A model generated the notes under the pieces. The model was not told the origin of the DNA, searched no databases, and worked only from the letters and a program-made list of their open reading frames with translations. The translations under genes were made by a program, and so were the position numbers. 44,685 bases of DNA from Promethearchaeota archaeon (GTDB lineage: Archaea; Asgardarchaeota; Lokiarchaeia; Sigyniarchaeales; SOKP01), in contig SOKP01000012.1 of the NCBI GenBank assembly GCA_004375715.1, positions 1-44,685 of the forward strand. The letters run 5' to 3'. This document shows, piece by piece, positions 2,452 through 11,722 of this stretch; position 1 is the first letter of the stretch; each line of letters starts with the position of its first letter.

Positions 2452-3756
2452 ATGATAGGGAATTATCTTATGGTAACAAAAATAACGAATGGTATGAATG
2501 ATTGGTTTGGGTGGTTTCCGGCATCCATTTTTGAAAATGACACCTGTTTTTTTATCCCAAGCATGGCAAATACTTGTGTTTTTGATACAAAAGAAGGGTT
2601 AGTGATCTTTGATGTTCCAATTAGGCAGTTCGCCCAAAAAACCTTCGATCAAGTAAGGAGTTTTACTAATAAACCTGTTAAATACATTATTTATTCACAT
2701 GGGCATTTTGATCACGCTTTTGGCTATGGTCCTTTTATAGAAGAAATAAGAAAAAAAGGTTGGGACATGCCCGAAGTAATTGCTCACGAGAATTGTATCA
2801 GACGATTTGAGAAATACGAAATTTTGGGAAAATATCACGATTGGATAAATAAGCAACAGTTTGCCTCTGTAAGTGGTAGGGGTCAAGATGCTGTCGTTTC
2901 TGCTCACGAAACATTAAACCCTACCATTATTCTTAAAGGAAATGACTCTTCATATTCGTTTAAATTAGGTGATGTAAATTTCGAAATTTACCACGATATA
3001 GGTGAAACTGACGATTCGATTTGGTTATGGGTCCCTGAAAAGAAGACTATTTGCACAGGCGATTTAATGGTTTCCTCCTTCCCTAATATTGGCAATCCTT
3101 TTAAAGTCCAGAGATATCCTAAAGATTGGGCTATAGCAATGGAAAAAATGAGAGAAAAAAACGCAGAATACTTAGTTCCCGGTCATGGGAGACTTATCGA
3201 AGGCACGGAAAAAGTTAGAGATGCTTTATCAATTACAGGGGAGGTGATGCATTTTGTCCACGATGAAGTGGTAAAAAGGTTAAACGAAGGGAAATGGTTC
3301 GAAGAAATCTACCACGAAATGCTAGAAATTTACCCCGATAAATTCAGGAACCATAATATTTTAAGAGGTATATATGGTTGTTATCGTTTCGCTATACATG
3401 CGACTTACAGGCTTTATCATGGGTGGTATGACAGTGGAAATCCTACTGATCTTTTTCCAGCCAAAACAGATGAAATCGCCCGAGAATTATTAAAAATTAA
3501 TAGTGAAGAAAAATATCTAGAGCATGCCAAAAAGCTCTATTCAGAAGGTAAAAAACAGCTTGCTTTACATATTCTTGATATAGTTGCAAAAGGAACTGAT
3601 GAGAAAAATGGAGAACCTCTAGTTGAAACCTTAGAGTTAAAAGTGAAGATCTTAAAAGAAAAAGTAAATGGTGAGACCTCTTTCATTGCAGGGAACATTA
3701 TCAATAATGCAACTCATCAAATAAAAGAAAGATTGAAAGAATTGAAAAAAAATTAA
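2452..3756 (+). CDS. Metallo-beta-lactamase-fold hydrolase, alkyl/aryl sulfatase (SdsA1/BDS1-like) family
   Basis: HxHxDH motif (SHGHFDH), GETDD, TGD, PNIGNP, PGHG, and alkylsulfatase dimerisation-type YHGWYDSGNPTDL. The true start may be the ATG at 2470. Confidence 0.85.
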   Translation: MIGNYLMVTKITNGMNDWFGWFPASIFENDTCFFIPSMANTCVFDTKEGLVIFDVPIRQFAQKTFDQVRSFTNKPVKYIIYSHGHFDHAFGYGPFIEEIRKKGWDMPEVIAHENCIRRFEKYEILGKYHDWINKQQFASVSGRGQDAVVSAHETLNPTIILKGNDSSYSFKLGDVNFEIYHDIGETDDSIWLWVPEKKTICTGDLMVSSFPNIGNPFKVQRYPKDWAIAMEKMREKNAEYLVPGHGRLIEGTEKVRDALSITGEVMHFVHDEVVKRLNEGKWFEEIYHEMLEIYPDKFRNHNILRGIYGCYRFAIHATYRLYHGWYDSGNPTDLFPAKTDEIARELLKINSEEKYLEHAKKLYSEGKKQLALHILDIVAKGTDEKNGEPLVETLELKVKILKEKVNGETSFIAGNIINNATHQIKERLKELKKN

Positions 3757-3807
3757 ATTAAAATTTTTAACAATAACTAAAGGATAATAGCTACAAATTG
3801 CATTAAT

Positions 3808-5337
3808 TTAGGTACCAGCTATTCTTTTTGGATATCGAGTTTGTGCGCTGAGATTTTCGTGGAGTAGCTTGTTAACCAATTCGAATTTAACCCCGTTGTA
3901 TTGTTCATCGTACCACAAGTTATTCAACTCATCTAAATCATTTTTTCTGTCAAATAGATCTCCATAATCTCTATGACCTTCGTATATAGTTAACTTAAAT
4001 TCCTTTGTTATTAGATGTCTTAATCTCTCGTGCAGAGGTCCAACTTCCTCATCATTCTCAATATAACAACAATCTCGTGGTTGATTGGCAGAATTCTCGG
4101 GGTCTTTTAAAACAGCTGACATATCAAAGCCTTGCATATCTGGTGGTTGTTTTCTTTTTGATATCCCTAAAAGGTTTAGGAGCGTCTTTGGGTAGTCTAT
4201 AGAGCTCATTAAAGCATCTGTTACCGCGGGTTTTGTTATTCCAGGAACTCTCCAAATCATAGGAATCCGAAACACCCCCATATAAGCTGATGGACCTTTA
4301 AAAAGCATTCCATGCTCACCCATTAAATCGCCGTGGTCACTGTTATATACTACGATTGTGTTGTCAGCAAACCCTAATTTTTCTAAAGACGCTAAGATCT
4401 GTCCAATACTAGCGTCAAGTAACGCAACAGTACCATATGTATAAGCTATGAATTTTCTAAGTTCCTCTTCATTTGTCTCTCTTAACATCGCCCCAGGCAT
4501 AACGTTAATATACGGTGCTAGATAGGGGTGGTTCCTCAAATTCTCTAGATCCTTGAAACTTTTTGGCAATTCAACATCTTCAGACTTATACATATTCCTA
4601 TATTTTCCCGGGGGATAAACAGACTGATGAGGGTCGGGAAATGAACAATGTACATAGAATGGTTTATTCCCATAATCTCCATTGGCGTGCCTTTCCAAAA
4701 AAGCGGTAGTACGTTCAGTTACATAAGCGCTCGAATACAAATCGACCGGTAATTCGTGTTCAGAAAACACAGAAAAGAAATTGTCAATATTTTTCCACCT
4801 TTTCCGCATGTTGTCCGCTAGCCTTGGAGATCTTTCCTCTAACCAATCCAAATAATGACCCGCCAAGCAAGCCCCATGCCCTATCACAGTTTCCACTTCT
4901 TGGTACCCATAGTAAGGAATAGGAAAATTCTCTCGTACGGGATACCACCCTTCTTTTTGGAAAACCCAATCGTAAAAAGATTCAGCAGATTTATCGCTGA
5001 TTCTATACGGGGCCGTGTTAAATTGATGATGCAACTTTCCAAAAACTGCTGTGTGCCACCCTCTATCAACTAGCGTTTGAGTAATTGTTGGGACATCTTG
5101 AGAGAGAATCATCCCGTTGCTTCTAACACCATGTACATTAGGGTAATATCCAGTTAACAATGTTGCTCTATTTGGCATACACATAGGGTTTGTACAAAAT
5201 GCGTTCGTAAATCGAACTCCTTCGCTTGCCAATCTATCCAAGTTCGGAGTTTTTAACATTTTATTTCCAGAACAACTCATGTGGTCATATCTATGCTGGT
5301 CGCTAATGATAAATAAAACATTCATTTTTTCTTTCAT
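3808..5337 (-). CDS. Type I (Cys/formylglycine-dependent) sulfatase, paralog 1
   Basis: NVLFIISDQHR, CxPxR signature (CMPNRATLLTG), GKLH, DPH, SDHGD motifs. Confidence 0.93.
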   Translation of the reverse strand: MKEKMNVLFIISDQHRYDHMSCSGNKMLKTPNLDRLASEGVRFTNAFCTNPMCMPNRATLLTGYYPNVHGVRSNGMILSQDVPTITQTLVDRGWHTAVFGKLHHQFNTAPYRISDKSAESFYDWVFQKEGWYPVRENFPIPYYGYQEVETVIGHGACLAGHYLDWLEERSPRLADNMRKRWKNIDNFFSVFSEHELPVDLYSSAYVTERTTAFLERHANGDYGNKPFYVHCSFPDPHQSVYPPGKYRNMYKSEDVELPKSFKDLENLRNHPYLAPYINVMPGAMLRETNEEELRKFIAYTYGTVALLDASIGQILASLEKLGFADNTIVVYNSDHGDLMGEHGMLFKGPSAYMGVFRIPMIWRVPGITKPAVTDALMSSIDYPKTLLNLLGISKRKQPPDMQGFDMSAVLKDPENSANQPRDCCYIENDEEVGPLHERLRHLITKEFKLTIYEGHRDYGDLFDRKNDLDELNNLWYDEQYNGVKFELVNKLLHENLSAQTRYPKRIAGT

Positions 5338-5418
5338 TTTACACCTAAATAAGATTTAAACTAAAGACAATATAAATCTATATCTACTTCTTTCAAAATG
5401 TTTCGATGTTTGACAAAT

Positions 5419-6342
5419 TTAAGTTATAAAGTAAAAAACCAGCGCCAAGGCTCCTAATACGAAAATTACAACTCCAACAGCCCTTCCCATCGTTTTAGCA
5501 GATAATTTTTGGATATATGTAGAGGCAATTATGCCAGATGTAATTGAACCGATTGCTAGATAAAACGAAAGTTTGAAATTTAAAAAGAATCGTCCTTTTA
5601 TAGTAATACCAAAAATTTGATAAAATGAGAAAGTACACAAGCCAATTATCATGCTCAGAATTAGAGCTGTACCAACCCCTTTTTTAAGAGGGTATCCATA
5701 AATTATAACTAGTGCTAATACAAAAACTAATCCAGAACTTGCTCCAAATAACCCTGAATTGATGCCAACAAAAATACCAAACCCAATCGCTAAAATATAG
5801 TACATTCGTGAGCCACGCGATATAAATCCTTTAATAGTATCTGATTCAGATGTTAACTGCTCGTCGATCTTTTTACTTAATTCGGTTAGCTCTTCTTTAC
5901 TTTTTCCTCTTTTTACGGTTTTACTTGCCCAGTTCTGAGCCATTTTTTTAACTGATTCGTATGTAGGAAAACCCCTCTTTAGAAAGAGAGCCCCTAAGAA
6001 CATAATGAAAATTGGAACAAACCACCCGTAAATGGAGCCTAGAGGTGTTGTCATTAAAAAAAAAACACCGAAAAAGGTGGTAACTATGCCAATAATGATT
6101 ATTAAAAATATATCTAATCTTATTTTAAATTGTTTTTTCCTAAAATATCCTATTGATACAGCGGCAGATGTAAGCAAATCATTTAATAGATTTATTGCAA
6201 TAGCTAAAAACACATCCCCAGTGAATAACAGAACAATAGGAAGTACAATTCCTAAGCCAGTTTGACCAATAAAGCTTATGCTTATTCCTACGAGAGCACC
6301 TATAGATATTAAAATTGCGATTTGATATATTTCCAAAGCCAT
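5419..6342 (-). CDS. TSUP (TauE/SafE) family sulfur-anion transporter
   Basis: About 8 TM helices in two halves, each opening with a Gly-rich motif (GISISFIGQTGLGIVLP; GINSGLFGASSGLVFV), plus KKGVGTAL. Lies between two sulfatases. Confidence 0.75.
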   Translation of the reverse strand: MALEIYQIAILISIGALVGISISFIGQTGLGIVLPIVLLFTGDVFLAIAINLLNDLLTSAAVSIGYFRKKQFKIRLDIFLIIIIGIVTTFFGVFFLMTTPLGSIYGWFVPIFIMFLGALFLKRGFPTYESVKKMAQNWASKTVKRGKSKEELTELSKKIDEQLTSESDTIKGFISRGSRMYYILAIGFGIFVGINSGLFGASSGLVFVLALVIIYGYPLKKGVGTALILSMIIGLCTFSFYQIFGITIKGRFFLNFKLSFYLAIGSITSGIIASTYIQKLSAKTMGRAVGVVIFVLGALALVFYFIT

Positions 6343-6387
6343 TTTTTATTCACATTTGAATTCTTATTTATAAATTTTCATTTTTTT

Positions 6388-7911
6388 TTAAGTTGCAGCA
6401 ACTCTCTTAGGAAATTTGGATTGTGCCTTAAGGTTTTCCTGTAATAATTTATTTACAAGCTTAAATTTTTTATCTCGAAAGTCTTTTTTATCCCATAAAT
6501 TATTTAATTCATGAGGGTCGTTTTTGCGATCGTAAATATCGCCAAAATTATCTAACCCTTCGTAAACAGTTAGCTTATAATCTTCAGTAATTAAATGCCT
6601 TATCCGAGCGTCTAGAGGACCGACCTCTTCGTCGTTCTCTATTAAAACGCAATCTCGTAATTTCTTTGCTGGATTTTCTAAGACTTGTGACATGTCAAAA
6701 CCTTGCATATAAGGTGGGTGGTGTCGCTCTTTTACATTTAAAAGGTTAAGAATCGTTTTAGGAAGATCGATAGTACTAACTAAAGATTGAGACACTCCTG
6801 ACTTTGTTAATCCGGGGACTTTCCAAATTAAAGGGATGTGACAAGGTCCTACGAAAGGACATGGCCCTTTGAATAATAGCCCATGATCGCCCATTAAATC
6901 GCCGTGATCACTGGTAAAAATTACCATTGTATTTTCTGAATACCCCAACTTTTCTAAAGTCGCTAGTATTTTACCTACGCTATAATCTACGTACGCAATA
7001 GCTGCGTATGTTAAAGCGGTAATCTTGCGAACTTCCTCTTCCGTAGATTCTCGTAAGAAAGCTTTTTTAAAGGGCGGATTTTTTAAATGATATCCTAAAT
7101 ATTCATGGTGATATAAATTCTTAGCATCTTGAAAACTTGCGGGGAGTTCTATATCTTCTGGTTTATACAAGTCTTGAAATCTTTTAGGCGGATATAGAGG
7201 ATAATGTGGATCTGGAAAAGAACAATGCAAATAAAACGGTTTTTCTCCATATTCGCCCTTGGCATGTCTTTCGAGGAAAGCAATTGTTCGTTCTTGAACA
7301 TAGGTAGTGTTGTATAAATCTTCTGGTATTCCTTCGCAATATAAACTAAAAAGATTGTCGTAATTCTGAACTCTTTTTTTCATTTCCTCTGCAATTTTAG
7401 GGGCTCTTTCTTCCAACCATTCTGTATAATGGCCAGCGCACACAGTACCATTTCCTGAAATCACTTCCACTTCGTCGTAACCATAATAGGGGAGGGGAAA
7501 ATTCTTGCCTACAGGATCGTTTTTACCTTTATCTACCGCCCAACTAAACAAACTCTCGGCAGATTTCGTTTTTTGCTTAAAAGGGCCTAACCAAAATTGG
7601 TGGTGTATTTTTCCAATAGCAGCAGTATGCCACCCTCTCTTTCTAAGCGTTTTTGTAATGGTAGGGGTATTTTCGGGTAAATTAATTCCGTTGCTTCTAA
7701 CGCCATGCACATTTGGATATAATCCTGTGAGTAAAGTTGCTCTGTTAGGCATGCAAATTGGATTAGTACAATAATAATTAGTAAACCTCACACCCTCACT
7801 TGCTAACCTATCGAGGTTTGGAGTTTTTAGGATGGGATTTCCTGCACAGCCTAAATGATCGGCCCGTTGAGCGTCAGTAATAATAAATAAAACATTCATT
7901 TTTTCTTTCAT
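6388..7911 (-). CDS. Type I (Cys/formylglycine-dependent) sulfatase, paralog 2
   Basis: CMPNRATLLTG, GKIH, DPH, SDHGD. Collinear with 3808..5337 and shares its MKEKMNVLFII start. Confidence 0.93.
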   Translation of the reverse strand: MKEKMNVLFIITDAQRADHLGCAGNPILKTPNLDRLASEGVRFTNYYCTNPICMPNRATLLTGLYPNVHGVRSNGINLPENTPTITKTLRKRGWHTAAIGKIHHQFWLGPFKQKTKSAESLFSWAVDKGKNDPVGKNFPLPYYGYDEVEVISGNGTVCAGHYTEWLEERAPKIAEEMKKRVQNYDNLFSLYCEGIPEDLYNTTYVQERTIAFLERHAKGEYGEKPFYLHCSFPDPHYPLYPPKRFQDLYKPEDIELPASFQDAKNLYHHEYLGYHLKNPPFKKAFLRESTEEEVRKITALTYAAIAYVDYSVGKILATLEKLGYSENTMVIFTSDHGDLMGDHGLLFKGPCPFVGPCHIPLIWKVPGLTKSGVSQSLVSTIDLPKTILNLLNVKERHHPPYMQGFDMSQVLENPAKKLRDCVLIENDEEVGPLDARIRHLITEDYKLTVYEGLDNFGDIYDRKNDPHELNNLWDKKDFRDKKFKLVNKLLQENLKAQSKFPKRVAAT

Positions 7912-8037
7912 AATCCTAAAAAATCTAATCTTACTTGTTAGTTAAAATTAAAGTCTATTTTATGATTTCATTTTTGATGTTAGAAAATATAAAGGTTCAT
8001 GTAGATATTAGTACTTACACCAATAGCTTTTGGCAAG

Positions 8038-8046
8038 TTTTATAAG
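8038..8046 (+). promoter_or_regulatory. Candidate archaeal TATA box for the leu leader transcript
   Basis: TTTTATAAG about 50 nt upstream of the leader ATG (8095), fitting a transcription start near 8065-8072. The AT-rich background lowers specificity. Confidence 0.45.
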
Positions 8047-8094
8047 TGTCCTATAATTCACTTTTTAATACATAATTAAAGGGATTTAAAAGTA

Positions 8095-8193
8095 ATGCTG
8101 CTTCAAAAAACGACTAGAATTGAATCTAGGAATTCATTTAAGCAATTTTATCCCTTTTTATTATTATTAAATCTTCTCTTATTATTACTATAA
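8095..8193 (+). CDS. Leucine-rich leader peptide (LeuL-like uORF), 32 aa: MLLQKTTRIESRNSFKQFYPFLLLLNLLLLLL*
   Basis: Translated by hand: ATG 8095 to TAA 8191-8193. The last 11 codons are TTA TTA TTA TTA AAT CTT CTC TTA TTA TTA CTA. Purine-rich AAAGGGA lies upstream. Ends 90 nt before leuA on the same strand. Confidence 0.75.
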   Translation: MLLQKTTRIESRNSFKQFYPFLLLLNLLLLLL

Positions 8194-8251
8194 TACCCCT
8201 CTCTTCTATTAGAAGGAAGGAGATATCTTTCTCTTTAGGGGGGGTTGTATA
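8189..8251 (+). promoter_or_regulatory. Putative attenuator RNA with alternative stems between the leader stop and leuA
   Basis: ACCCCTCT (8195-8202) can pair with GGGGGGGT (8238-8245). GAAGGAAGGA (8212-8221) can pair with TCTTTCTCTTT (8226-8236). Alternatively, CTTCT (8203-8207) can pair with AGAAG (8211-8215). Confidence 0.6.
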
Positions 8252-8283
8252 AAAAACGATAAATTTAATATAGGTAAAGAAAA

Positions 8284-9903
8284 ATGGAAAAAAACAGTAA
8301 TGTAAGTGTTTCGCAAATAATGGGGGAAATAAGAGACTCACTTAGTCTTCCGGATAAAGCTTATTTTTTCGATACAACGCTTCGTGATGGTGAACAAACC
8401 CCCGGTATAAGTTTTACTCACAAAGAGAAAATATCTATTGCACAAACACTAAATGATATGAAAATTGATGTAATTGAAGCGGGATTTCCAGTTACTTCTA
8501 TAGGCGATTTTGAAGCGTGTAAATCCATAGCTAAATTAGGATTAGATTCTGAAGTGATGGGACTAGCGAGGATGGCAAAAATTGATATAGATAAAGTTAT
8601 TGAAGCGGATATGGATAGTATTCACCTTTTTATTGCTACATCAGATTTACATCTAAAATCAAAACTTCAAATGAGTCGCGATGAAGTAATAGAGCAAATT
8701 AATAAATATGTTTCTTATGCTAAAGAGCATTACTCGACAGTATTATTCTCAGCTGAAGATGCAACTCGTTCTGATTTGGATTTCTTAATTAAAGCAAATT
8801 TAAATGCAATTGAGAGCGGAGCAACGAGAATTAATATTCCTGATACTGTAGGTACCATCTCGCCAAAAGCGTTCGGATATATGGTAAATAATGTATATAA
8901 AGCAATTCCAAGTGACATTAGAATAGCAGTACACTGTCATAACGATTTTGGACTCGCCGTCGCAAACACTATTGCGGGATTCGAAAATGGAGCCTCGGAA
9001 GCACAAACTACAATTATGGGTTTAGGAGAACGAGCTGGCAATGCTTCCTTTGAAGAAACAGCAATGTCACTCTATGCTCTATATCAATTACCTATGAATA
9101 TCATCACGCAAAAAATATTTCCCACTGCGAAACTCATCGAAAGTTATTGTGGTGGTAAAGTTAGGATAGGACGCCTCCAACCTTTGATAGGGCAAAACGC
9201 ATTTGCTCACGAAGCAGGCATTCACGCCCATGCCATGATTAAAAACGCGCGAACCTACGAACCTATCACTCCTAAGTTAATTGGAATAAGTAGATCTGAC
9301 AGTGTAGTAGATATTCTTAAGGAATCAATTAAATTTGGGAAACACAGTGGTGGACATGCGTTAAAAGCAAAATTGGGAGATCTTGGAATTAATACGAATG
9401 ATAAAGAATTCGTTAAAATAATGAATCACATTAAAGATTTTGGAGACAAAGGACATGAGGTTTCTGAAGAAGATTTTTTAGCAATTGTTAAGGATGTTAT
9501 GGGAGAAATACCCGAAGAAGAACAATACGTCATTCTTGAAGAATTAACGGTTTTGACTGGTTCCATAACTCCTACATCAACTGTGCGTTTAAAAATAAGA
9601 AATGGAGATTTCGTAGAAAAAGTCGCTTCCTCAATAGGAGTTGGTCCAGTAGATGCGTCAGTCAATGCTATTGTTAAATGTTTTAAACCCATGAGTAACA
9701 TTAAGCTTTTAAACTTCCAAATTGACGCGATTACTGGAGGAACTGAAGCATTAGGACATGTGGTTATCGAAATTTTGGACATTGAAAGTAATCTCATAGT
9801 TAAAGCAAGTGCTACTCATGAAGATATTGTAATGTGCTCGGTTTTAGCTCTTGTAAAAGGTTTGAATCTTATAGTTAAGAAAAAAAATGCTGAAATGAAA
9901 TGA
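8284..9903 (+). CDS. leuA: 2-isopropylmalate synthase (LeuA/CimA family)
   Basis: DTTLRDGEQTPG, EAGFP, PDTVG, HCHND, GLGERAGN, HEAGIH and a C-terminal allosteric domain (GVGPVDA). Followed by leuC and leuD. Citramalate synthase cannot be excluded from motifs, but the Leu-rich leader favours LeuA. Confidence 0.85.
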   Translation: MEKNSNVSVSQIMGEIRDSLSLPDKAYFFDTTLRDGEQTPGISFTHKEKISIAQTLNDMKIDVIEAGFPVTSIGDFEACKSIAKLGLDSEVMGLARMAKIDIDKVIEADMDSIHLFIATSDLHLKSKLQMSRDEVIEQINKYVSYAKEHYSTVLFSAEDATRSDLDFLIKANLNAIESGATRINIPDTVGTISPKAFGYMVNNVYKAIPSDIRIAVHCHNDFGLAVANTIAGFENGASEAQTTIMGLGERAGNASFEETAMSLYALYQLPMNIITQKIFPTAKLIESYCGGKVRIGRLQPLIGQNAFAHEAGIHAHAMIKNARTYEPITPKLIGISRSDSVVDILKESIKFGKHSGGHALKAKLGDLGINTNDKEFVKIMNHIKDFGDKGHEVSEEDFLAIVKDVMGEIPEEEQYVILEELTVLTGSITPTSTVRLKIRNGDFVEKVASSIGVGPVDASVNAIVKCFKPMSNIKLLNFQIDAITGGTEALGHVVIEILDIESNLIVKASATHEDIVMCSVLALVKGLNLIVKKKNAEMK

Positions 9904-9935: not shown

Positions 9936-11210
9936 ATGGGTTTAACAATTACTGAGAAAATTCTTAGAGATCATTGCCAAAATAAAAAAGCCATTGCTGG
10001 TGATTTTATTATGGCCGATATCGATAAATGTTTGGCTAACGATATTACTGCTCCCATAGCCATAGACGTATTTAAAAAAGTGACAGAAGATTCTAAAGCT
10101 GAAGTTTTTGATTCTTCTAGAATCATTCTAATCCCTGACCATTTTACTCCAAATAAGGACGTGGCCTCTGCTGCTCAGTGTAAAATCCTTAGAGACTTTG
10201 CTACTAGACATAATATTACTAACTATTTTGAGGTTGGAAGAGGAGGCATTGAACATTGTCTTGTACCAGAACAAGGATTGGTGAAACCAGGAGACGTTTT
10301 TATTGGGGCTGATTCACATACATGCACTTATGGTGCACTTGGGGCGTTTGCAACAGGAGTTGGATCTACAGATTTAGGTGTAGCAATGGCGTTAGGAAAA
10401 TGTTGGCTTAAAATCCCAGAATCTATTAAGTTCATTTATTCTGGTGGATTAAATGAATGGGTTTCTGGAAAAGACTTGATATTATATACAATAGGGGAGA
10501 TTGGCGTAGATGGAGCCACATACAAAGCTATGGAATTTACAGGTGATTCAATAAAAAGTTTACCTATAGAAGATCGGTTTACTATGTGTAATATGGCTAT
10601 AGAAGCTGGCGGAAAAAGTGGAATCATTGAACCTGATACTATAACCAGATCATATTTAGATTCTGTTAAGATATCAAATGATAGTTTTTATAGTAGTGAT
10701 AAAGATGCTGAATATTGTGATATTATAGATTTTGAATGTGCTAATATAGAACCACAGATTGCCCTTCCTCATTCACCTGATAACGTGAAATCCATTTCAG
10801 AAGTGCACGGTATGAAAATAGAATTAGATCAAGTAGTCATAGGATCGTGTACAAATGGCCGGCTTACCGATTTAAGAAATGCTGCGAAAATTCTTAAAAA
10901 TCGTAAAATCAATAAAAAACTAAGATGCATAATAATACCAGGAACGCAAAATATATATCTAAAAGCGATGGAAAGAGGATATATTGAGAGTTTTGTTAAT
11001 GCTGGTGCAATAGTATCAACTCCTACCTGTGGACCGTGTTTAGGTGGTCATATGGGCGTCTTAGCGGAGGGAGAGAAAGCGTTATCCACAACTAATAGAA
11101 ACTTCCAAGGGAGAATGGGGCATGTTAATAGCGAGGTTTTTTTGTCCAGCCCTGCAGTTGCAGCTGCTTCAGCGATAAAAGGGTATATAACCTCCCCAGA
11201 AAATTTATAA
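9936..11210 (+). CDS. leuC: 3-isopropylmalate dehydratase large subunit
   Basis: GADSHTCT, IGSCTNGR, CGPCLGGH and STTNRNF aconitase-family motifs; short archaeal/Firmicutes-type length. Confidence 0.92.
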   Translation: MGLTITEKILRDHCQNKKAIAGDFIMADIDKCLANDITAPIAIDVFKKVTEDSKAEVFDSSRIILIPDHFTPNKDVASAAQCKILRDFATRHNITNYFEVGRGGIEHCLVPEQGLVKPGDVFIGADSHTCTYGALGAFATGVGSTDLGVAMALGKCWLKIPESIKFIYSGGLNEWVSGKDLILYTIGEIGVDGATYKAMEFTGDSIKSLPIEDRFTMCNMAIEAGGKSGIIEPDTITRSYLDSVKISNDSFYSSDKDAEYCDIIDFECANIEPQIALPHSPDNVKSISEVHGMKIELDQVVIGSCTNGRLTDLRNAAKILKNRKINKKLRCIIIPGTQNIYLKAMERGYIESFVNAGAIVSTPTCGPCLGGHMGVLAEGEKALSTTNRNFQGRMGHVNSEVFLSSPAVAAASAIKGYITSPENL

Positions 11211-11218
11211 GAAAAAGT

Positions 11219-11722
11219 GTGAGATTGCCAATGATTGGAAAAGTAATTAAGTATAATCTAAAAAATATTAATACTGATCTAATAATTCCTGCTAGATATT
11301 TAATAAATTCAGATAAGAATTTTCTAGCACAGCACTGTATGGAGGATTTAGATCGCGAATTTATTAAAAAAGTTAGTGAATATAATTATTCTATCCTAGT
11401 TGCGAATTCAAATTTTGGTTGCGGATCAAGTAGGGAACAAGCTCCTTTAGCATTAAAAGCTAGTGGGATAAAATGCATTATCGCACCTTCATTTGCCAGG
11501 ATTTTTTTTAGAAATTCGATAAACATTGGCTTACAAATAGTAGAATTATCTAATATTGATGATATAAAAATTGGAGATGTGCTAGAGATCGATTTAAAAA
11601 TAGGGATAATTAATAATACAACTTCACTACACCATTATACAGTTAAAAAACAACCAGTTTTCCTCCAGGAAATAATTTCTGATGGTGGTTTAGTTAATTA
11701 TACTAAAAAAAGATTGATTTAA
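11219..11722 (+). CDS. leuD: 3-isopropylmalate dehydratase small subunit
   Basis: NINTDLIIPARYL, NFGCGSSREQA, SFARIFFRN. Start is GTG 11219 or ATG 11231. Confidence 0.92.
   Translation: MRLPMIGKVIKYNLKNINTDLIIPARYLINSDKNFLAQHCMEDLDREFIKKVSEYNYSILVANSNFGCGSSREQAPLALKASGIKCIIAPSFARIFFRNSINIGLQIVELSNIDDIKIGDVLEIDLKIGIINNTTSLHHYTVKKQPVFLQEIISDGGLVNYTKKRLI

Follow-up and report, generated by a model that had tools for sequence, protein, structure and literature searches.

Can an archaeon measure its supply of leucine with a translating ribosome? The question is raised by a short open reading frame (ORF) that precedes the leucine biosynthesis genes leuA, leuC and leuD on contig SOKP01000012.1 of assembly GCA_004375715.1, from a Promethearchaeota archaeon (Lokiarchaeia, Sigyniarchaeales). 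The contig was analysed over its whole length of 44,685 nucleotides (nt), hereafter called the window. Leader-peptide attenuation, a textbook form of control via coupled transcription and translation, is regarded as a bacterial device, and the RNA polymerase and termination machinery of the host are of the eukaryote-like type. An earlier reading of the DNA sequence (from here on the original prediction) held that ribosomes stalling on the leucine codons of the ORF control the expression of leuACD. We propose that ORF 8095-8193 is probably a leucine-sensing leader peptide gene of the leuA-leuC-leuD transcript, read by the ribosome and with an output that is controlled by a hairpin. The comparative evidence supports the leucine sensor well, and the output mechanism would clearly not be the bacterial one.

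The leucine codons ahead of leuA

The original prediction described a 32-codon ORF between a TATA-like box and leuA, with 12 leucines in its peptide and Leu as 10 of its last 11 codons, and this is exactly what is found (Table 1). From the end of the ORF to the leuA ATG there are 90 nt. The run is built from TTA, CTT, CTC and CTA. That it is not a mere TTA microsatellite, as had been claimed, is borne out by its genome-wide rarity, by synonymous codon change and by its conservation in relatives; the same observations rule out chance.

The rarity was determined in the whole assembly, a metagenome bin of 3.07 Mb in 320 contigs (32.3% G+C) of which the window is one contig and in which linkage between contigs rests on binning. 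A six-frame scan found only 12 stop-free stretches of 11 codons, at 9 loci, with at least 9 Leu. A scan of the frames that end at most 300 nt before ORFs of at least 120 amino acids, which asked for any amino acid in at least 6 of the last 10 codons, gave the leuA leader as top match for any amino acid (Leu in 9 of the last 10 codons). The sole other match with at least 8 Leu (8 of 10) lies before the archaeal-type gene of leucine-tRNA ligase, leuS. The two most extreme C-terminal Leu runs sit before the two most leucine-specific transcription units, and chance is not the explanation.

An upstream ORF (uORF) of this kind, which the original prediction led one to expect at orthologous loci, is indeed present at most of them. 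LeuA orthologues (E <= 1e-150) occur in 74 of the 154 species genomes of the order to which the window genome belongs. Seventy upstream regions were judged, four having been set aside (two genes at contig ends, two with runs of N), by the maximum Leu count in a stop-free stretch of 11 codons and with the antisense strand as control. At least 6 Leu are reached at 64 of the 70 loci on the sense strand and at 5 on the antisense strand; for at least 8 Leu the counts are 44 and 0. The leaders span 14 genera and two families. In the family of the window genome the uORF was found at all 61 evaluable loci; one of these attains only 5 of 11 Leu, and one leader of this family has the weaker tail ..INLSLHLLLRYL* (here and below the asterisk marks the stop codon). 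In the second family the uORF was found at 4 of 5 loci, including a complete 6.0-Mb single-contig genome (G059, locus L232), and in two G+C-richer families at none of 4. Counted from the end of the stop codon, the ATG of leuA follows after 87-96 nt at 17 loci; at 44 further ones the spacing is 82-101 nt, with a median of 93.

Is the frame conserved, or only its nucleotides? The former is the case, as had been predicted: start, frame and stop are kept and the Leu codons vary synonymously. A uORF starting with ATG was assigned at 51 of 55 newly fetched leuA loci; of the other four, two are truncated at contig ends, one contains a stretch of N, and in one the uORF was found by eye. Two members of the genus have TTG in place of ATG. 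The length of the run differs between leaders by whole codons. Among eight distinct leaders of the genus, the last 12 codons show 11 synonymous and 2 non-synonymous alternative codon states, compared with 8 synonymous and 53 non-synonymous ones in the preceding 19 codons, a pattern that points to selection on Leu and on little else in the leader peptide. Across the 14 genera the codons of the run interchange among TTA, TTG, CTT, CTC, CTA and CTG, and the Ile and Phe codons favoured by A/T pressure are nearly absent. TTA makes up 94 of the 149 Leu codons within the last 12 codons of 16 leuA leaders, compared with 45% of the Leu codons in the long ORFs of the genome. An N-terminal M-K-x-L-Q motif is common to the leader peptides of many genera (L186-L231); the middle of the peptides is not conserved.

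A small membrane peptide was considered and rejected. The hydrophobic tails, almost purely Leu, are with 9-14 residues too short to span a membrane, and the substitutions in the run are synonymous. Distant members interleave D, E, R and N, as in ..SLGLRLNELDLDLLLL and ..LELCLDELDLLLLLL, and since their Leu residues are spaced by charged ones, they form no membrane helix.

In a co-occurring strain, represented by one contig of sequencing run X2, three bases are missing at window position 8159, so that its Leu run is one codon shorter and stays in frame. Contigs of run X1 cover parts of leuA at 90-95% likeness and do not cover the leader; they have no bearing on expression.

Directly behind the leader follows a stable RNA structure, in the window a Y-shaped hairpin. 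In every leuA leader the structure begins 0-4 nt past the stop codon, and in some folds the stop codon is itself paired. The 65 nt past the stop fold with -21.4 kcal/mol in the window and with -14.1 to -25.3 kcal/mol across 17 leuA leaders. In 1500 like-placed sections of the genome, taken as control, the mean is -5.74 and the 1st percentile -15.4 kcal/mol, so that all 17 hairpins rank in the best 1.6%. The median of 53 further leuA loci is -20.1 kcal/mol. The stem sequences vary by genus and keep their place (GCCTCTTAGATTC/GAATTTAAGAGGC, GCCCTATTCC/GGAAGTATAAGGGC and ATCTCTCTTT/AAAGAGAGAT).

The signals on either side recur as well. Upstream of the uORF, genus-level orthologues likewise have a TTTATAAG-type element, and most orthologues have AGGA- or GGGAT-like motifs ahead of the uORF start. 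The AGGGAT of the window matches the anti-Shine-Dalgarno sequence at the 3' end of the 16S rRNA (GGATCACCTCCT) only in part. Ahead of leuA, the motif AAATTTAA(T)-N-AGGT recurs in orthologues. The Shine-Dalgarno (SD) motifs AGGTGA, GGAGGT and AGGAGG peak at -20..-8 before the gene starts of this genome, which is why we regard the SD interaction as plainly used here.

The leuS leader and related cassettes

The gene behind the second Leu run encodes an archaeal-type leucine-tRNA ligase of 962 amino acids (TIGR00395, 922.7 bits, cut-off 648.5). Its leader is present at all 17 loci of the genus whose upstream sequence is 200 nt or longer; one more locus offers only 53 nt. The uORFs comprise 27-32 codons and have tails such as ..VLLQSLLLLLL*, ..LLQALLQLLL* and ..DLLAVLLLLL*. 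From the uORFs to the leuS start there are 112-156 nt, the spacers being variable, and a hairpin begins 1-4 nt past the stop codon of the uORF. This hairpin covaries: 93.3% of the cells of its alignment are paired, compared with 30-50% when the partners are slid, and 6 of its 13 pairs are compensatory. RNAalifold recovers the stem unaided. The loop of this hairpin type carries T5-T7 tracts, and no U tract follows the hairpin. No such leader was found at two leuS loci of another family, nor before a class-I synthetase paralogue that was detected with the LeuRS query (contig C94).

A covariance model built from the leuS leader was searched against the genomes of genus and family. In the genus 34 of 42 genomes have a match, and in the family 91 of 135, which represent 6 of 13 genera. 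Beyond 11 extra genus-level matches, 20 of the family matches were sampled for their downstream gene. Five precede archaeal-type leuS and have a Leu-rich tail. Two (L248 and L249, in genomes G086 and G091) precede a bacterial-type leuS (TIGR00396, 411 bits on the first 266 amino acids) with the tail ..KVLLLLL* (peptide MISNNNMKNSLSLQFLNKVLLLLL*); this is a third, unrelated leucine locus with a Leu-rich leader. Four are followed by a gene for an FrhB/FdhB-plus-TrmB-like protein; their tail is Ile/Val-rich, except in one (L236), in which no uORF was detected. Seven, with a Val-rich tail, are followed by small acidic ORFs, by unclear ORFs (none was found in one) and once by a gene of the acyl-CoA dehydrogenase family (L251). 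Behind the remaining two, one with an Ile-rich tail and one without a run, the downstream gene is unclear.

The Ile-rich cassette also occurs in the assembly studied here (Table 1) and is kept in seven genus genomes (this one and six others) and in other genera. The FrhB/FdhB-like protein behind it has 474-477 amino acids and a C-terminal helix-turn-helix of the TrmB type. Val-rich cassettes (e.g. ..GVVVLVVVL* and ..SSVVVVDVVVVLL*) were seen before small acidic ORFs of 59-65 amino acids; the Val-rich loci are L237-L240, L247, L251 and L252, and also L176 on contig C40 of genome G007. Two weaker matches of the model (L175, L177) have uORFs without an amino-acid run. The cassettes share an N-terminus like M-I-S-N-N-T-A.

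Since the tails of these paralogous cassettes switch wholesale among Leu, Ile and Val, each being kept at its own locus, it can be argued that codon identity matters. A simple cognate logic, on the other hand, is disfavoured by the Ile and Val versions, whose downstream genes are not evidently connected with these amino acids. We put forward only tentatively, with somewhat more doubt than confidence, that Asgard archaea of the Lokiarchaeia type possess a family of ribosome-read uORF-hairpin cassettes, each tuned to a single branched-chain amino acid (Leu before leuA and both types of leuS, Ile or Val before other genes). Such cassettes may gate expression by a mechanism other than hairpin plus U tract, for example through a hairpin under the control of the ribosome that decides on factor-dependent termination, on RNA decay or on the loading of ribosomes.

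Cognate leaders of other amino acids, which the original prediction had suggested looking for, were not upheld in the run scans of this genome (W, H, M, C, T, V, P, R, S, G, A, Q, E, D, Y). These scans gave only alternative frames of coding regions or genes unlinked to the amino acid, save one Cys run: a uORF ending in SCCCSICCCC* lies 88 nt before a gene for a cysK/cysM-like enzyme dependent on pyridoxal phosphate (contig C34, L116:3278-3349, minus strand). The gene is followed by one for a radical SAM/SPASM protein, and the uORF could encode a cysteine leader or the precursor of a peptide natural product. The cysK/cysM-like gene has no orthologue in 40 relatives at E <= 1e-80.

How far do Leu runs before leuA extend among the Archaea? 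Named records provided 77 archaeal leuA loci with at least 200 nt of upstream sequence each. At least 8 Leu in 11 codons are found on the sense strand of 6 of the 77 loci and on the antisense strand of 1, and no other amino acid attains 8 of 11, except Ala once per strand. Three of the six loci belong to Promethearchaeota. Three more Promethearchaeota records stand outside this count, one with a short upstream sequence and two with weaker runs (7 and 5). Two records from outside the Asgard group, titled Altiarchaeales archaeon (L106) and Methanobacteriota archaeon (L108), share leader tails of the form ..LLLLLLGLRE* or ..LLLLLLRLRE* (..LELLLLLLGLRE, ..LTLLLLLLRLRE); these leaders are located 86-94 nt upstream of leuA and have a GCGAGAG/TCTCGC hairpin over the stop codon. 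At the sixth locus (L085) the Leu frame has no start codon before the run, and it was not counted as a leader.

Among named records, the closest relatives of the LeuA of the window bear the title Promethearchaeota or Promethearchaeia archaeon (76-96% identity); next in line are Methanopyri, Methanocaldococcus and Hadarchaeota (44-47% identity). This shows the gene to be archaeal, with no recent import from bacteria. An archaeal small-subunit rRNA is present on another contig of the assembly (RF01959, 1352.7 bits); together with the titles of the LeuA relatives this makes the label Asgard archaeon, used in the original prediction, a fair one.

About 30 nt past the leuD stop codon there is a T6 tract without a hairpin. 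The neighbour of the leader on the opposite strand is an arylsulfatase-like gene (6388-7911). The gap between it and leuA, 372 nt long, is therefore a divergent promoter region. This gene belongs to a sulfur-ester gene cluster (window 2452-7911) that adjoins the leu locus.

Table 1. Features of the leuA locus and its neighbourhood in the window, followed by two related cassettes elsewhere in the assembly.
Feature	Position	Strand	Basis or remark
TATA-like box TTTTATAA, candidate promoter of the leader-leuA transcript	8038-8045	+	57 nt before the uORF ATG
Shine-Dalgarno-like AGGGAT	8080-8085	+	9-14 nt before the uORF start
Leader ORF, 32 codons and stop, ATG start, TAA stop, MLLQKTTRIESRNSFKQFYPFLLLLNLLLLLL*	8095-8193	+	sequence and ORF list
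Leu-codon run, codons 22-32 (LLLL N LLLLLL), proposed sensor of charged tRNA-Leu	8158-8190	+	
Y-shaped stable hairpin, outer stem CCCCTCT/AGGGGGG, two inner hairpins	8196-8243	+	RNAfold; 2 nt past stop
A/T-rich spacer GTTGTATAAAAAACGATAAATTTAATAT, from hairpin to leuA ribosome-binding site	8244-8270	+	
leuA Shine-Dalgarno core AGGT	8271-8274	+	9 nt before ATG; AGGT(G)A in orthologues
leuA, 2-isopropylmalate synthase, 539 amino acids	8284-9903	+	NF002085, 561.6 bits, cut-off 517
leuC, 3-isopropylmalate dehydratase large subunit	9936-11210	+	TIGR02083, 658.2 bits, cut-off 610.65
leuD, 3-isopropylmalate dehydratase small subunit	11219-11722	+	TIGR02087, 174 bits, cut-off 108.95
Alkyl-sulfatase-like gene	2452-3756		
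Sulfatases, two	3808-5337 and 6388-7911		
TauE/SafE sulfite exporter	5419-6342		
leuS leader MVLKNAALLSSVKEFLQKKVLLQSLLLLLL* with covarying hairpin	contig C275:33620-33770	+	151-154 nt upstream of leuS
Ile/Val-rich cassette MVSSYTATRRLTRLFIPLIIIIVAVLIR*	contig C293:4600-4780	+	upstream of FrhB/FdhB-like protein

How the leader could act

We propose that the supply of charged tRNA-Leu is gauged by how fast the ribosome moves through the Leu run and that the position of the ribosome decides whether the hairpin folds, because the run abuts both the stop codon and the hairpin. When Leu-tRNA is scarce, the ribosome would wait on the last Leu codons with the 5' arm of the hairpin held in its mRNA channel; the hairpin would not form, and the transcript would be completed and used. 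When Leu-tRNA is plentiful, the ribosome would terminate and leave, the hairpin would fold, and the expression of leuA would be cut down. Run, stop codon and 5' arm follow one another directly, so that a waiting ribosome would hold the arm and a terminated one would free it. The folded hairpin would be the "off" signal, acting via premature termination, processing or decay dependent on archaeal factors and not as a hairpin-plus-U terminator. In which direction the response goes, and at which step (transcription, RNA stability or translation) the output lies, we infer from the arrangement of these elements. The opposite wiring, in which the ribosome lags early in the run and the hairpin folds and is protective, fits the sequence equally well.

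Several observations weigh against this proposal. No U tract follows the leuA hairpin: in the next 8 nt the mean T fraction is 0.37, which is background, and at least 4 T are found there in only 18 of 53 distinct leuA leaders. Such a background rules out a classical bacterial terminator (hairpin plus U tract). Most genes of this genome end at a T tract and have no hairpin there, a tract of at least five T being located within 100 nt past the stop of 56% of the long ORFs and mostly in the first 30 nt. According to PMC13681488, T-tract gene ends without a hairpin are the archaeal norm, with intrinsic termination via oligo-dT tracts and also a factor, FttA. No antiterminator signal was detected, the Leu codons pairing with the hairpin region no better than synonymous variants do; variants that pair equally well or better make up a fraction of 0.30-1.0 in the leuA leaders (n = 15) and of 0.29-0.95 in the leuS leaders (n = 16). 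It is possible that the ribosome occludes the 5' arm directly, for which no antiterminator pairing would be needed. Six of the 70 leuA loci are without the leader, among them all four of the two G+C-richer families, and the genomes compared are related metagenome bins, so that the counts are not independent. Finally, homologous cassettes with Ile/Val-rich tails or with no run precede genes that are unlinked to those amino acids (FrhB/TrmB-like, small acidic ORFs).

Ribosome-stalling attenuation at leuACD, as originally predicted, finds support: the Leu leader is backed by comparative data (64 of 70 loci, the synonymous run and the leuS leaders), and the mechanism, lacking a U tract, is not simply the bacterial one. 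The likeness to eukaryotic uORF control that had been suggested received no support from any of the tests made. Because there is no hairpin-plus-U terminator, the output step must differ from the bacterial one, and this is the point of greatest interest.

The same sensor could have a translational output, which we consider unlikely. The U-rich Leu run would then pair with the A-rich ribosome site of leuA in a base stem around the central hairpin, and a waiting ribosome would free the leuA start. Minimum-energy folds of many leaders do pair the Leu run with the region of SD and AUG, and the LEU element of Actinobacteria (see below) has the same logic (PMC1262725). In the close relatives L006 and L007, the 7-bp helix that the Leu/Asn codons form with the AAATTTAAT motif is preserved through two changes, as judged by eye. 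The RNAalifold consensus of 10 leaders is nevertheless without the base stem, and at -13.0 kcal/mol the duplex of the Leu run with the region of the leuA start takes only rank 506 among 2108 gene starts of the genome, which is ordinary for an A/T-rich genome and counts against the proposal made above as well. A ribosome-sized mask placed 10 codons before the stop lifts the mean unpaired probability from the leuA SD to the AUG from 0.46 to 0.61, and a mask at the stop codon lifts it to 0.54; the rise is at least 0.15 in 19 and 9 of 42 distinct leaders, respectively, with no shuffled control behind the masking figures. The other 23 leaders do not reach this rise with the former mask, and the leuS leaders, with their distance of 112-156 nt and variable spacers, are a poor fit.

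Even less probable is that nothing is sensed. The uORF would then be an independent gene for a small hydrophobic peptide, the hairpin the end of its transcript, and leuA and leuS would have their own promoters after the hairpin; we give this very little credence. In its favour, the post-hairpin motif ATAAAATTTAATTGAAA of the leuS type resembles the promoter-like element ATAAAATTTATAAAACAG upstream of the uORF, and leuS may have a second promoter there. TATA-like k-mers have no sharp position before the genes of this genome, and the geometry of a second promoter is not settled by them. At leuA, an mRNA starting about 26 nt after the TATA-like GTATAAAA would omit the conserved SD at -13..-10, and because this SD lies outside such an mRNA, leuA mRNA should begin upstream and run through the leader. 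The spacing of 82-101 nt between stop and ATG is retained despite sequence divergence, which also speaks against an independent gene. An independent gene would agree with the presence of same-family cassettes, some without an amino-acid run, before unrelated genes, and with the T5-T7 tracts in the leuS-type loops, oligo-dT being the archaeal termination signal (PMC13681488). The Leu-rich versions, however, go with three unrelated loci (leuA, archaeal-type leuS and bacterial-type leuS), and the paralogous cassettes switch wholesale among Leu, Ile and Val with no mixing. Moreover, the hydrophobic stretch is too short for a membrane and is broken by D, E and R in distant leuA leaders. Still less credible, to the point that we would be surprised to see it confirmed, is a leader that works as a structured RNA, for instance by binding a protein or a ligand, with ORF and Leu codons as by-products of a U-rich sequence. 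The hairpin is indeed the most stable and best supported part of the element; yet start, frame and stop are kept across 14 genera while the nucleotides of the run change synonymously, and the codons of Phe (TTT) and Ile (ATT, ATA), equally rich in U and A, are nearly absent from it. Neither leader matches an Rfam family: cmscan of positions 7800-8400 (E up to 10) and of the leuS leader each gave three unrelated weak matches, the best with E = 2 and E = 5.2, respectively, far below the gathering scores. Rfam families of this kind are the Leu, His, Thr and Trp leaders and the T-box.

Known systems and biological meaning

The enterobacterial leader-peptide attenuators leuL, hisL, pheL and thrL have in common with the leuA leader a short uORF with cognate codons before the cognate operon, a stable RNA structure after it and, as proposed here, a ribosome that serves as sensor of charged tRNA. 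They differ in that the archaeal leader has no U tract after the hairpin and no supported antiterminator, and in that its Leu run, at 10-11 codons, is much longer and extends up to the stop codon. A further difference is the archaeal RNA polymerase, with termination at oligo-dT tracts and by FttA (PMC13681488).

Closer in layout is the LEU element upstream of leuA in Actinobacteria (Seliverstov et al., 2005; PMC1262725), a Leu-codon uORF without a classical terminator. For its control that paper proposes a stem between the Leu codons and the Shine-Dalgarno box of leuA around a central structure. A conserved pseudoknot also characterizes the element. The leuA leader shares with it the Leu-run uORF before leuA and the lack of a classical terminator, and single folds predict a similar base stem. 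Different are the base stem being without statistical support here, the absence of any sequence relationship, and the archaeal host.

Attenuation can also be factor dependent, with the regulatory codons adjoining the stop of the leader, as in the tna operon (TnaC/Rho) and in the Cys-run leaders of actinobacterial cys operons that PMC1262725 discusses. Both have in common with the leuA leader that the regulatory codons are at the end of the ORF and that there is no intrinsic terminator; a held ribosome could mask the sequence downstream. Archaea differ in having FttA/aCPSF1 and not Rho, and past the stop codon there is here a stable hairpin and not an unstructured entry site. A run that abuts the stop codon without an intrinsic terminator has a geometry compatible with factor-dependent (tna-like) attenuation.

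For the leuS leader the counterpart is pheM of E. coli pheST, to our knowledge the only bacterial aminoacyl-tRNA synthetase operon under the control of a leader peptide. It works through a classical terminator/antiterminator. Both have a leader with cognate codons upstream of the synthetase gene, whereas in the leuS leaders the hairpin covaries, its loop is rich in T, and it is not followed by a U tract.

The full-text literature searched, which excludes most subscription journals, yielded no description of leader-peptide attenuation in Archaea. In PMC6393860 the only passage on a leader peptide concerns bacteriocin precursors, and in PMC2965389 and PMC4833913 the term archaea appears in the reference lists only.

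If the leucine sensor proposed here is true, the archaeal lineage nearest to the eukaryotes would have a means of sensing tRNA charging with the ribosome. The leader would then be a natural and mutable test case for functional coupling of transcription and translation in Archaea, and also for whether the termination factor FttA can be regulated. Since the leader is present in the complete 6.0-Mb single-contig genome G059, a tractable organism may exist. And if the cassettes before leuA, leuS and other genes do form one family tuned to single branched-chain amino acids, this would be an archaeal form of attenuation and the functional counterpart of the bacterial attenuators and T-boxes.

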